In this document: positions 11,737 to 62,035 of the stretch, piece after piece | How positions within the stretch are numbered: the first letter of the stretch is position 1 | Layout: every line of letters starts with the position of its first letter | Origin: an uncultured Candidatus Saccharibacteria bacterium | GTDB lineage: Bacteria > Patescibacteriota > Minisyncoccia > Phycocordibacterales > UBA9973 | Assembly (NCBI GenBank): GCA_964622505.1 | Contig: CAZUQJ010000001.1 | Location: 44,240 to 108,239, forward strand | DNA: 64,000 nucleotides | Direction: 5' to 3' | The notes under the pieces: generated by a model | The model's database searches: none | What the model saw: only the letters and a program-made list of their open reading frames with translations | Told to the model about the DNA's origin: nothing | Translations under genes and position numbers: made by a program

Positions 11737-11807
11737 TGGGGTATCGTCTAATGGTAGGACAGAGGCCTTTGAAGCCTTTAATCGAGGTTCGAATCCTTGT
11801 ACCCCAG
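11737..11807 (+). tRNA. tRNA-Gln (anticodon UUG)
   Basis: Cloverleaf by hand: acceptor UGGGGUA/UACCCCA, D-arm GUC-UAAUGGUAG-GAC, anticodon arm GAGGC-CUUUGAA-GCCUU (UUG), T-arm CGAGG-UUCGAAU-CCUUG, discriminator G, no encoded CCA; close to E. coli tRNA-Gln architecture. Confidence 0.85.
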
Positions 11808-12019: not shown

Positions 12020-13459
12020 ATGAAAAACTTGGTAGAAATTGTTGGCGATATCGAGCCTTTGAACATAAAGGGCTCTTTGGACGTATTGATTTCCTCTGTT
12101 TCTATCAATTCTGCGCTTGTAGTTCCCGATGCACTTTTTATTGCTATTGTCGGCGCCCAAGTTGATGGCCATGATTTTATTGACGACGCAATCAGTAAAG
12201 GTGCGAAAGTTATTGTCTACGAAAAAGATATAGAATTCAAAGATGGGATTGTATATATCAAAGTTGCTGATAGTCATGAAGCATCGGGTAAGATTGCCAA
12301 TGCTTATTATGATTATCCTTCAAAAAAATTGAAAATTATTGGTGTCACAGGAACAAATGGCAAGACAACTATTGTTACACTACTTCACCAACTGTTTCGC
12401 AACCTTGGATACAAAGCGGGCATGATCGGGACAGTAGCAAATAAAATCAATGACGATAGTGTTGAAGCAGTCCGCACTACTCCCGACCCGATCACACTCA
12501 ACGAAACTTTGGCTCAAATGGTAGAAGCGGGTTGTGGGTATTGCTTTATGGAAGTTAGCTCTCATGCGGTAGCGCTCAAACGTATCGAAGGATTGGAATT
12601 TGTAGGTGGCGTATTTACCAACCTCACGCATGACCATCTGGATTTCCACAACACTATAGAAGAATATGCAAAAGCCAAACAAGATTTTTTCACTAGTTTA
12701 CCATCCACAAGTTTCGCACTTTCAAATATGGACAGTGACAAGGGAGAGTTTATGCTGGAATCTACAAAAGCAAAAAAGTATTTTTATTCAAGAGAAAAGC
12801 CTGCAGATTTTACTGGCGCAGTAGACACCAAATTGATAGGTGACTTCAATCAATCAAATATATTGGCTGTACTTGGTACGGCAGTATTGCTAGGCGTAGA
12901 CGAGAAAGTAGCGAGAGAGGAGATCAAAAAGCTTGATCCAGCGCCAGGCAGATTTATATCATGGACCAGTCCGACTGGTACAATTGGGATTGTAGACTAT
13001 TCACATACCCCAGATGCTTTGGAAAATGTGTTAAAAACAATCCAAAATCTTGTAGGTGTCCAACACCTACATAAGGAGGTGTCCAACACCTACAAGCCCA
13101 AAGTGATTACGGTTGTGGGTTGTGGTGGTGACCGAGATAAAGCAAAGCGTCCAGTGATGGCTAAAATTGCTTATAATATGAGTGATATTGTGATCCTGAC
13201 TTCAGACAATCCCCGTAGTGAAAATCCTCAAACGATTTTGGTTGAGATGCAAAAAGGTCTACCAGAAAATTATCAGAACAAAGTACAAATAATAGAAGAT
13301 CGGCACTTGGCAATCCAAAAAGCATGCGAACTCGCAAAAAGTGGTGACTACATATTACTTGCTGGCAAAGGTCATGAAAATTACCAAGAGGTAAATGGAG
13401 TCAAAACGCATTTTGATGATATGGAAGAATTAAAAAAGTGTTTTGATAAAATGATATAA
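12020..13459 (+). CDS. murE: UDP-N-acetylmuramoyl-L-alanyl-D-glutamate--2,6-diaminopimelate ligase
   Basis: Mur ligase motifs IGVTGTNGKTT, DYSHTPDALENVL, VGCGGDRDKAKRP, DNPRSENP; ORF track start 12011 is TTG, first ATG at 12020. Confidence 0.9.
   Translation: MKNLVEIVGDIEPLNIKGSLDVLISSVSINSALVVPDALFIAIVGAQVDGHDFIDDAISKGAKVIVYEKDIEFKDGIVYIKVADSHEASGKIANAYYDYPSKKLKIIGVTGTNGKTTIVTLLHQLFRNLGYKAGMIGTVANKINDDSVEAVRTTPDPITLNETLAQMVEAGCGYCFMEVSSHAVALKRIEGLEFVGGVFTNLTHDHLDFHNTIEEYAKAKQDFFTSLPSTSFALSNMDSDKGEFMLESTKAKKYFYSREKPADFTGAVDTKLIGDFNQSNILAVLGTAVLLGVDEKVAREEIKKLDPAPGRFISWTSPTGTIGIVDYSHTPDALENVLKTIQNLVGVQHLHKEVSNTYKPKVITVVGCGGDRDKAKRPVMAKIAYNMSDIVILTSDNPRSENPQTILVEMQKGLPENYQNKVQIIEDRHLAIQKACELAKSGDYILLAGKGHENYQEVNGVKTHFDDMEELKKCFDKMI
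13049..13096 (+). repeat. 48-bp twin-hairpin palindromic element inserted in-frame in murE (copy 1 of 2)
   Basis: CTTGTAGGTGTCCAACACCTAC-ATAAGGAG-GTGTCCAACACCTACAAG encodes VGVQHLHKEVSNTY, an insertion relative to the usual MurE linker before GCGGDRD; near-identical copy in atpG at 61228-61275. Confidence 0.6.
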
Positions 13460-27476: not shown

Positions 27477-27518
27477 CCCAAGGTCGGACCTAGGGCTAGC
27501 CCTAGGTCCGACCTTGGG
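27477..27518. repeat. 42-bp perfect GC-rich palindrome in the ftsI-murF intergenic spacer
   Basis: CCCAAGGTCGGACCTAGGGC-TA-GCCCTAGGTCCGACCTTGGG (20-bp arms); no U-tract follows; murF ATG is 10 bp downstream. Confidence 0.6.
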
Positions 27519-60915: not shown

Positions 60916-61848
60916 ATGGCAAGTACAAAAGAAATCAAATCACGAATAAAGAGTGTCAAGAACACAAAAAAGATCACCAAGGCTATGGAACTTGTTGCTG
61001 CTTCCAAAATGAAGCGCGCGGTTTCTTCGACTTTGGCATCTCGTTTGTATGCTGAGTATTCATGGGAGATTTTGACTTCGATTGCAAATAGTACAGAGGA
61101 GATTTCGCACCCACTTTTTGTACAACGCCCTGTTAAAAATATTTTACTTGTGCTGATTACTTCTAACCGTGGTCTCTGTGGCGCCTACAATGCTCAAGTG
61201 ATAAAGAAATCCCTAGCTTTACTCTCAAACGTAGGTGTTGGACACCTACATAAGGAGGTGTTGGACACCTACAATATAGATACTATTACGATAGGTCGCA
61301 AAGGTGACACTGCAATGCGCCGAATTGGACGTAATGTCATTGCAAGCTTTACCGAATTGCCAGATACAATCAAGCTTGCCGATATAGTGCCAGCGTCGTC
61401 AATGATTATAGATGAATACGCAAGTGGTCGTTATGACAAAGTCCTCGTGGCTTACACCGATTTCGTTTCAGCATTAACTCAAAAGCCAAACATCAAACAA
61501 ATCCTCCCAATTTCAAAAGAGCAGATTAAAGAATTAATAGATACAGTAGGTGAGAATGTTGATAACAAAGAAGAAATTCCTAAAGCCCACATTGACTACA
61601 CTTTTGAAGGTGATCAGGAAGCACTACTCAAATCATTGGCCGAGAAGTTGTCACGAATGCAGATCTACCAAATGCTCCTTGAATCCAATGCCTCCGAGCA
61701 GTCATCGAGAATGGTAGCGATGAAAAACGCATCAGATGCTGCAGGAGAAATGATAGATGATCTGACATTAGTATTCAACAAAGCCCGCCAAGCGTCGATC
61801 ACACAAGAAATATCAGAAATCAGCGCCGGTATGGCAAGTGTAAGTTAA
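60916..61848 (+). CDS. atpG: F0F1 ATP synthase subunit gamma (carries the 48-bp palindromic insertion)
   Basis: ITKAMELVAASKMKRA N-terminus, NRGLCGAYN, C-terminal ITQEISEI; insertion NVGVGHLHKEVLDTYN. Confidence 0.9.
   Translation: MASTKEIKSRIKSVKNTKKITKAMELVAASKMKRAVSSTLASRLYAEYSWEILTSIANSTEEISHPLFVQRPVKNILLVLITSNRGLCGAYNAQVIKKSLALLSNVGVGHLHKEVLDTYNIDTITIGRKGDTAMRRIGRNVIASFTELPDTIKLADIVPASSMIIDEYASGRYDKVLVAYTDFVSALTQKPNIKQILPISKEQIKELIDTVGENVDNKEEIPKAHIDYTFEGDQEALLKSLAEKLSRMQIYQMLLESNASEQSSRMVAMKNASDAAGEMIDDLTLVFNKARQASITQEISEISAGMASVS
61228..61275 (+). repeat. 48-bp twin-hairpin palindromic element inserted in-frame in atpG (copy 2 of 2)
   Basis: AACGTAGGTGTTGGACACCTAC-ATAAGGAG-GTGTTGGACACCTACAAT; identical to the murE copy except that both hairpin loops are flipped (CCAA to TTGG). 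Confidence 0.6.
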
Positions 61849-61852
61849 TTAT

Positions 61853-62035
61853 ATGAAATATTTTTTATACACAATTATATTTATACTTTTCGCATCAATC
61901 TTTTTCCCAATTATTCCGATAATGGATAAAGGCCCACGTTGCATTTGCAGTAACATAGGTCCATGTCCGAGTTGCGATGAACCTATGCTGATATTAGAAA
62001 CATTACCCCGAATAGTTTATAAACTTACTCATTAA
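61853..62035 (+). CDS. small Cys-containing membrane protein inserted between atpG and atpD
   Basis: 60-aa ORF, one TM plus CxC...CPSC; fills the gamma-beta intergenic gap. Confidence 0.3.
   Translation: MKYFLYTIIFILFASIFFPIIPIMDKGPRCICSNIGPCPSCDEPMLILETLPRIVYKLTH

Follow-up and report, generated by a model that had tools for sequence, protein, structure and literature searches.

A 42-nt nested palindrome lies in frame within atpG of a Nomurabacteria-like bacterium (Patescibacteria/CPR), and a sister copy lies in murE on the same 64,000-nt stretch of DNA, here called the window. The two host genes are unrelated and essential, the copies are approximately 48 kb apart, and both are read in the same frame. 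The element is probably one of a lineage-specific family of nested-palindrome repeats of 42–46 nt in Nomurabacteria/Paceibacteria genomes, selfish or neutral DNA resembling REP dimers, REPINs and RPEs, which was copied from murE into the atpG loop and is translated through. We infer that it has neither a dedicated role in ATP synthase nor a ribosome-binding function. It was a notable discovery when palindromic repeats were found in frame within essential genes of Rickettsia, and the element described here is a much shorter analogue in CPR. On this explanation, streamlined CPR genomes would tolerate, and keep renewing, selfish or self-maintaining DNA in core enzymes. Functional adaptation would then not be the default reading of length variation in CPR protein loops, and gene callers and alignments will often meet such inserts.

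Two copies of a nested palindrome

The features discussed are listed in Table 1. The focal element consists of two 19-nt hairpin units (61231–61249 and 61254–61272), each with an 8-bp stem and a 3-nt loop. According to the original prediction, the interval 61228–61275 holds the same element as the one at approximately 13049–13096; half-unit, core and repeat searches agree on this identity, and the interval encloses the 42-nt core at 61231–61272 plus three flanking bases on each side. Both copies follow the formula GTAGGTGT-NNN-ACACCTAC-ATAA-GGAGGTGT-NNN-ACACCTAC. They match at 36 of 42 positions and differ solely in the two 3-nt loops, TGG in atpG and CCA in murE, which are reverse complements of each other. 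Because of this match to the distant murE copy, a de novo origin of the atpG copy by local template switching was rejected. When up to three mismatches are allowed, the half-unit GTAGGTGTNNNACACCTAC has four matches in the 64-kb window (13052–13070, 13075–13093, 61231–61249 and 61254–61272), compared with a mean of 0.11 in shuffled sequence, and none of 100 shuffles reaches four. The 20-mer core ACACCTACATAAGGAGGTGT occurs twice in the window (0.00 expected), and a repeat search pairs 13052–13095 with 61231–61274 (44 nt).

Table 1 Positions of the element, its parts, its host genes and related features in the window
Feature	Position	Strand	Details
atpG, F1 gamma subunit, 310 aa	60916–61848	+	Pfam ATP-synt PF00231, E = 3e-88
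Focal 42-nt nested palindrome	61231–61272	+	Inside atpG; encodes gamma residues 106–119, VGVGHLHKEVLDTY
Focal element, arm 1	61231–61238		GTAGGTGT
Focal element, first loop	61239–61241		TGG
Focal element, arm 2	61242–61249		ACACCTAC
Focal element, spacer	61250–61253		ATAA
Focal element, arm 3	61254–61261		GGAGGTGT, one mismatch
Focal element, second loop	61262–61264		TGG
Focal element, arm 4	61265–61272		ACACCTAC
Shine-Dalgarno-like string	61252–61260	+	AAGGAGGTG; 9-mer from spacer and arm 3
murE, UDP-MurNAc-tripeptide synthetase, 479 aa from the ATG at 12020	12020–13459	+	Mur_ligase domains; P0121 100% identical
Sister 42-nt copy	13052–13093	+	In murE; loops CCA/CCA; encodes VGVQHLHKEVSNTY
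42-nt perfect GC-rich nested palindrome, other sequence family	27477–27518		Intergenic, ftsI-like gene/murF

An assembly or sequencing artefact, either a chimeric join or an adaptor-like palindrome, comes to mind for such a structure, given that library artefacts can yield short perfect palindromes and that the source is a metagenome-assembled genome. However, the Logan assemblies made from runs SRR12762303 and SRR12762304 match the window with 100% identity across 2118 and 3648 bases, and Logan contigs reproduce both elements, loops included (atpG copy in L214, murE copy in L215). We exclude an assembly artefact because these two independent assemblies, from different runs, match both loci base for base. 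In addition, both ORFs are intact and four further genomes, obtained in other studies, have homologous elements at this murE site, which leaves a practically nil chance for an artefact of either kind.

Neither the species-representative genomes nor the JGI metagenomes yielded another copy in an exact search for the core ACACCTACATAAGGAGGTGT. As far as sequence matching goes, this exact variant is confined to the present genome within the collections searched. A peptide search for further coding copies gave 52 candidates that share words with the query, none with E ≤ 10. No target-site duplication is present at the junctions, which read AAAC before and AATA after the atpG copy and TCTT before and AAGC after the murE copy, and no target motif common to the element junctions is visible on inspection. 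A DNA uptake sequence was rejected as the density is far too low, and an intrinsic terminator was rejected for the missing T-run and the position within an ORF.

The atpG element folds at −27.1 kcal/mol as RNA (z = −7.7 versus shuffles) and at −12.6 kcal/mol as DNA (z = −5.9 versus shuffles). The twin hairpin of the original prediction is possible as an alternative fold, but the minimum-energy fold of both window copies is a single long hairpin in which arm 1 pairs with arm 4 and arm 2 with arm 3, interrupted by 3×3 or 1×1 internal loops. An Rfam gathering scan of the window returned three tRNAs only and nothing at the element.

Protein context of the insertions

The atpG gene is part of a complete atp operon, with synteny in L081, and the gamma homologues come from Candidatus Nomurabacteria/Paceibacteria (Patescibacteria/CPR). 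When 35 close gamma homologues are aligned, the main length variation falls in the segment after LALL. From RGLCG to GxKGD the gamma segment has a baseline of 36–38 residues in 81 of 113 homologues and at least 43 residues in 26 of them; it has 47 in the window. This bears out the claim that the element is inserted in frame in atpG, at a position where orthologues have a short loop. The closest gamma orthologue (L081/P0003, 86% identity) has a short loop and no hairpin, so to speak an empty site. A search for an orthologue with the same peptide but without the palindromic DNA found none among the relatives examined; the long-loop gamma relatives carry other palindromes, so the original claim held on this point. 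The murE copy is located in the linker preceding the C-terminal domain (KVITVVGCGGDRD), which is 33 residues long in the window, whereas 93 of 118 homologues have the baseline length of 21. Overall, insertions at the gamma and murE sites are present in 19–23% of homologues.

An AlphaFold2 model of the window gamma subunit (mean pLDDT 72.9) places insert residues 106–117, at pLDDT <50, between a helix (89–104) and a strand (120–126), and solved gamma chains align to the insert stretch with gaps. From the length comparison, the model and the gapped structures, we conclude that the insert is an added and probably disordered surface loop of gamma. In the model, the insertion position appears compatible with the protein fold (a helix–strand loop), as is characteristic of RPEs. 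The encoded peptide, VGVGHLHKEVLDTY, follows ...NRGLCGAYNAQVIKKSLALLSN and precedes N, as had been claimed, although it comprises 14 codons and not the 16 amino acids first counted. Predicted gamma peptides that cover the insert are EVLDTYNIDTITIGR (tryptic) and SLALLSNVGVGHLHK.

Read along the sense strand, the host frame alone is stop-free across the element, the other two frames running into TAG or TAA, and on the reverse strand one frame is open. Because the unit is 42 nt long (14 codons) and stop-free in frame, it would simply be transcribed and translated. For the same reason splicing, which had been raised as something to check, is neither required nor suggested. An intron or an archaeal bulge-helix-bulge splice site was rejected, given the 42-nt in-frame insert without bulge-helix-bulge geometry.

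Homologous murE elements and covariation

Elements of 42–45 nt are present at the murE linker in four other genomes, which come from other studies. The window element reads GTAGGTGT-CCA-ACACCTAC-ATAA-GGAGGTGT-CCA-ACACCTAC, that of L085 reads ACAGGTGT-TGG-ACACCTG-ATGAAT-CAGGTGT-CCA-ACACCTGT, that of L086 reads ACAGAGGT-CCA-ACCTCTG-GAGATA-CAGAGGT-TGG-ACCTCTGT, and L088 and L209 both have GCAGACGT-CGG-ACGTCTGC-AGGAA-CAGACGT-CCG-ACGTCTGC. We regard these elements as homologous because they have size, layout and inner core in common. Each substitution in the arms ACAGGTGT, ACAGAGGT and GCAGACGT is present in all four arms of its element, and L085 has its own variant twice, with the second copy at another murE site. 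The murE-linker palindrome persists across species that are approximately 70–74% identical in MurE. The peptides that these elements encode are unrelated (VGVQHLHKEVSNTY, TGVGHLMNQVSNTC, TEVQPLEIQRLDLC and ADVGRLQEQTSDVC), and the constraint is therefore not on the protein.

This bears on the possibility of an adaptive protein insertion, in which the 14-residue loop would form a new regulatory or interaction surface of gamma and MurE. Lineage-specific gamma loops serve regulation or interaction in chloroplasts and mycobacteria, the present insert is in frame and kept in two essential proteins, and length variation recurs at the gamma loop. We nevertheless find adaptation very improbable, given that the same peptide occurs in two unrelated enzymes, that the homologous murE-site elements keep their DNA symmetry and encode unrelated peptides, that the insert has pLDDT <50 in the model and that the closest orthologue lacks it.

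Covariation was assessed in a hand-chosen alignment of ten sequences (A3). Pairing is seen in 91% of cells when they are arranged as a twin hairpin and in 94% when they are arranged as a long hairpin, compared with only 29–54% in slid controls. Between 25 and 28 cells are changed on both sides, and none of 500 shuffles reaches the observed covariation. Arm 1 is paired with arm 4 in 97.5% of cells, and at the two outermost positions the far arm is a better pairing partner than the near one. G-U is found in only 2 of 158 cells. The compensation is strictly Watson-Crick, unlike that of typical RNA-selected helices, and the encoded peptides are unrelated; this points to a palindrome at the DNA level, as opposed to a typical RNA motif or a peptide under selection. 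The orientation of the loops changes independently between copies and units, and the two window copies differ solely by such flips. In L085, L086, L088, L209 and L212 the loops are inverted (TGG...CCA and similar), which gives a perfect long palindrome.

As the structure persists across species, the main rival is a function at the RNA level: a selected mRNA structure whose long hairpin tunes mRNA decay or processing, or slows ribosomes at a domain boundary and so adjusts subunit stoichiometry or folding during translation. Compared with shuffles the fold is very stable, pairing at the murE linker is kept across species through compensatory changes, both sites lie at domain or sub-domain boundaries just ahead of a Rossmann-type beta-strand, and insertions at these same sites are seen in 19–23% of homologues. 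Persistence at the murE linker and the recurrent occupation of loops could thus mean selection for structure instead. However, strict Watson-Crick compensation with so few G-U cells is the signature of a double-strand DNA palindrome, and the same architecture is found intergenically. In addition, most orthologues, the closest included, are without the element and unrelated sequence families occupy the same loop, so that we consider a selected mRNA structure unlikely.

Resemblance to a Shine-Dalgarno sequence

The element had also been given a Shine-Dalgarno (SD) label, which turns out to describe a resemblance only. The string AAGGAGGTG has three occurrences in the window, two of them inside the two elements. 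Only 7 of 58 window genes have an SD-like 4-mer match upstream, and many window start codons are directly preceded by TATAAT-like strings. In the homologous elements the motif is replaced by ATGAATCAGG (L085), GAGATACAGA (L086) and AGGAACAGAC (L088). The string is partly paired in the best fold, and no start codon lies at a usable distance downstream of it. Since the window genes do without SD sequences, the motif is not conserved, it is partly paired and a start codon is missing, we judge AAGGAGGTG to be incidental on the sequence context.

The same observations weigh on the proposal that AAGGAGGTG is an internal ribosome-binding or pause site, for which the perfect match of spacer plus arm 3 to an SD-like 9-mer would speak, and we hold this highly improbable. 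The same grade applies to its variant, ribosome hopping of the kind known from T4 gene 60 and from yeast mitochondrial byps. Synonymous Asn codons do flank the atpG element (AAC before, AAT after), and short hairpin-forming inserts that are bypassed in translation are known (PMC5009743), but matching codons for take-off and landing are missing from the murE copy, and the intragenic elements keep the frame open in 15 of 15 cases, which is unneeded for bypassing.

Origin and comparison with known systems

In most genomes, elements at separate loci differ in sequence. The window's two copies, identical outside their loops, are therefore best read as the murE variant having recently been copied, or homogenised, into atpG within the genome. 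In the explanation that we favour, the older resident copy would sit in the murE interdomain linker, and its genome-specific variant would have reached the atpG loop through transposition in trans, ectopic gene conversion or template switching. Through translation, gamma would gain a disordered surface loop of 14 residues between a helix and a beta-strand, where it would be tolerated. The symmetry of the palindrome would be kept at the DNA level, with changes in one arm spreading to four arms and loops flipping between TGG and CCA, as is to be expected where hairpins or cruciforms template repair and strands are switched. Counting against this explanation are the low copy number, 2 in 64 kb, the lack of a target-site duplication or shared target motif at the junctions, and the Pfam result, in which none of the ten unidentified window ORFs matched a transposase family (one ORF is RmuC); the other window ORFs were assigned by inspection and synteny.

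The element resembles REP dimers, REPINs and RPEs yet fails defining features of each. Intragenic REP dimers that encode 20–30 aa are documented in Opitutus, Rickettsia and Thauera, and REP units end on one side in a tetranucleotide, GTAG or CGTC, that is conserved and unpaired (PMC3733652). REP units are imperfect palindromes of 20–40 bp, and REPINs (PMC3116915) are RAYT-mobilised REP doublets. As in REPs and REPINs, the present element has short palindromic units of approximately 19–21 nt in close doublets that fold separately or as one hairpin, and its sequences are species-specific. In contrast to REPs, its GTAG is paired with CTAC inside the stem, and the relatives begin with ACAG or GCAG. 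The focal copies carry both loops in one orientation (head-to-tail), an arrangement seldom seen in REP families, whereas the relatives are inverted. The spacer of just 4–6 nt sets the element apart from REPs and REPINs, as does a copy number that seems low (two in 64 kb, both intragenic, versus tens to thousands, with many extragenic), and no RAYT transposase of the Y1 (HUH) type is found among the ten unidentified window ORFs.

RPEs are in-frame palindromic repeats of approximately 100–150 bp with a conserved peptide that have been read as selfish DNA (PMC10969869). The present element is likewise palindromic and in frame in unrelated housekeeping genes (atpG and murE) with intact ORFs, at positions compatible with the protein fold. 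Unlike RPEs, it is 42 nt long, its peptide is not conserved between species and its phylum is Patescibacteria; nothing suggests relatedness in sequence, and it is set beside RPEs by description.

The double-hairpin elements of Allomyces and the sponge RHEs are short, GC-richer hairpins in AT-rich compact genomes, occasionally inside protein genes (PMC2800124), and the yeast mitochondrial byps are short blocks at 81 positions of coding genes (PMC5009743). The present element shares with these mitochondrial hairpin elements its very short, GC-richer, double-hairpin form at variable sites of protein genes, although its host is bacterial and not organellar. Byps disrupt the frame and are bypassed, whereas the elements here are in-frame and stop-free, and ordinary translation suffices. 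Similarity to MITEs lies in being non-autonomous, with terminal inverted repeats (arm 1/arm 4), and in occurring both between and within genes. However, the element is below the usual MITE size, lacks a target-site duplication and has no matching parent insertion sequence that we have seen. A full-text search for literature on CPR or Patescibacteria with intragenic palindromic repeats found no description within the library searched.

Recurrent occupation of the same loops

Relatives carry nested palindromes of other sequence in the same gamma loop. Of the close ones, L083 has GCCCGAAGTC-C-GACTTCGGGC-TA-GCCCTAAGTC-C-GACTTCGGGC, L212 has TTCTGGAAGTC-G-GACTTCCAGAA-TAT-TTCTGGAAGTC-C-GACTTCCAGAA, L084 has a degenerate element of the CAGACGT type, and the distant CPR members L033 and L036 have a 50-nt palindrome of −56 to −62 kcal/mol. 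A second variable gamma site holds further elements in L212, L083 and L001. At yet another orthologous protein, L001 (18894) and L017 (18647) have elements of differing sequence at the same position. The intergenic palindrome at 27477–27518 in the window (−41.9 kcal/mol, z = −9.9) has the same architecture as the atpG-loop insert of L083, and the two have the family core GGGCTAGCCC in common. Applied to 605 kb of Paceibacteria loci, a strict detector found 15 twin hairpins, all of which keep an open frame, and it found 13 in an overlapping 594-kb set compared with 0 in the shuffle.

The most interesting point about these elements is that the same loops are occupied again and again across Paceibacteria. 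A bolder reading, which we put forward tentatively and regard as rather doubtful, is that Nomurabacteria/Paceibacteria harbour an undescribed class of 42–50-nt palindromes of palindromes, with concerted evolution of four arms, loop flips and recolonisation of the same helix-loop-strand junctions, so that insertion or replacement would be structure- or site-directed. The site-directed route would then be a hairpin-recognising single-strand transposase or replication template switching, as opposed to random insertion filtered by selection. If it is true that the reuse of sites is mechanistic and not a selection filter, this would amount to a new targeting mechanism. The strict Watson-Crick concerted change of four arms offers a natural system for hairpin-templated mutation. 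The junctions concerned are gamma site 1, gamma site 2, the MurE linker and others, in essential proteins.

The half-sites of the focal element, AGGTGT-N3-ACACCT, are perfect 15-bp palindromes placed 23 bp apart, or approximately two helical turns. Tandem sites of this kind might bind a dimeric protein, or act as a cruciform in chromosome organisation or replication, and AGGTGT/ACACCT doublets occur in many unrelated metagenomic contigs of 33–75% GC, some of them forming multi-copy families. We think a DNA-level site of this sort very unlikely all the same: the arms drift among close relatives (GGTGT, GAGGT, GACGT), leaving no fixed recognition sequence, wholly different sequences lie in the same protein loops, only two copies are present in 64 kb, and the metagenome matches were selected by the query pattern itself, without a control pattern. 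The pattern AGGTGTNNNACACCT...AGGTGTNNNACACCT gave more than 120 metagenome loci, mostly unrelated high-GC or 33-nt families selected in this way, and the AGGTGTNNNACACCT doublet pattern with YSR loops had no match in viral contigs. Among the metagenome pattern loci, the low-GC family of the window seemingly includes only L093, L102, L150 and L193. Within low-GC metagenomic contigs, the AGGTGT-TGG/CCA-ACACCT family is seen between genes of a ribosomal-protein operon in L102 and inside rnhB in L193.

Related palindromes in the window and in other genomes

The window holds a further perfect nested palindrome of the same length as the atpG element, in the 56-nt gap between an ftsI-like gene and murF, with a folding energy of -41.9 kcal/mol. 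This intergenic copy and the insert in the atpG loop of L083, a locus of related Paceibacteria, belong to one sequence family. In two other such loci, L001 and L006, twin hairpins built on TCCGCC-NNN-GGCGGA are inserted in-frame in two different genomes, in another protein each time; the L006 copy lies in the ATP synthase beta subunit, within its N-terminal domain. Two nested palindromes that differ in sequence, one in L001 and one in L017, occupy an identical position of an orthologous protein (...FLNALE..[insert]..REFI..PGSS...) in two genomes, and this site is the third example of unrelated sequences at one site.

Two metagenomic families (43 nt and 33 nt) were represented by L094, L099, L100, L121, L123, L124, L138, L154, L163 and others, from samples Ga0114945 and Ga0137796. 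Their hosts are unrelated organisms that have the stem hexamer in common, on contigs that were themselves picked by an AGGTGT-N3-ACACCT-type stem pattern.

Coordinates and descriptions of the palindromic families and of other features
Feature	Location	Coordinates	Description
GC-rich perfect nested palindrome, 42 nt	window	27477-27518	CCCAAGGTCGGACCTAGGGCTAGCCCTAGGTCCGACCTTGGG
Twin-hairpin family TCCGCC-NNN-GGCGGA x2	L001; L006	15680-15709; 4627-4656	peptide SAKGGSASGG
Nested palindromes of differing sequence	L001; L017	18894-18933; 18647-18688	one orthologous protein
Multi-copy 43-nt element	metagenome contigs of about 68% GC		AGGTGTCAGACACCT-TTCCCGCTTTGAA-AGGTGTCTGACACCT
33-nt family	metagenome contigs of 41-47% GC		AGGTGTCCTACACCT-NNN-AGGTGTAGGACACCT
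tRNA	window	11737-11807	just 5' of murE
RmuC-family gene	window	31562-32623	- strand; Pfam, E = 4e-53
ORF, 432 aa	window	35539-36837	flanks tandem array
Tandem repeat array	window	36835-37340	non-coding, about 500 bp; TRF period 43
GC hairpin	window	36877-36900	inside 5' part of array
ORF	window	37371-37862	flanks tandem array, other side
Hydrophobic, Cys-rich ORF, 60 aa	window	61853-62035	between atpG and atpD

Other features of the window

RmuC, encoded by a common gene, has been described as a factor that keeps down inversions between short inverted repeats; the window's copy is possibly relevant to loop flipping (the TGG/CCA change in loop orientation between copies), and we claim no link. 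The tandem array repeats a 21-22-nt unit roughly 22 times, with TGTTTTAAAACCA and TGTGAAAAACCA alternating and 9-10 variable bases after each; it might be a set of iterons, an array for binding or a repeat RNA. A Pfam scan of the flanking 432-aa ORF returned no match.

Shine-Dalgarno sequences are essentially absent from the window, with any 4-mer match in 7 of the 58 genes whose products reach 100 aa or more. TATAAT-like strings often stand directly 5' of the ATG, a placement that suggests leaderless or very short-leader mRNAs. The MurE homologues P0134 and P0227 carry N-terminal extensions, such as RGSSNGRT..NLGSIPSP (alignment A2 of MurE homologues, columns 1-30), which look like the upstream tRNA gene translated by read-through and are probably gene-calling artefacts of those records.

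The spacers of the atp operon are variable in the clade, as seen from their differing ORFs: the window's 60-aa ORF has no counterpart in the closest relative, L081, its position between atpG and atpD is taken by a 23S_rRNA_IVP gene in L083, and the related locus L212 has an 89-aa ORF in the atpA-atpG spacer.
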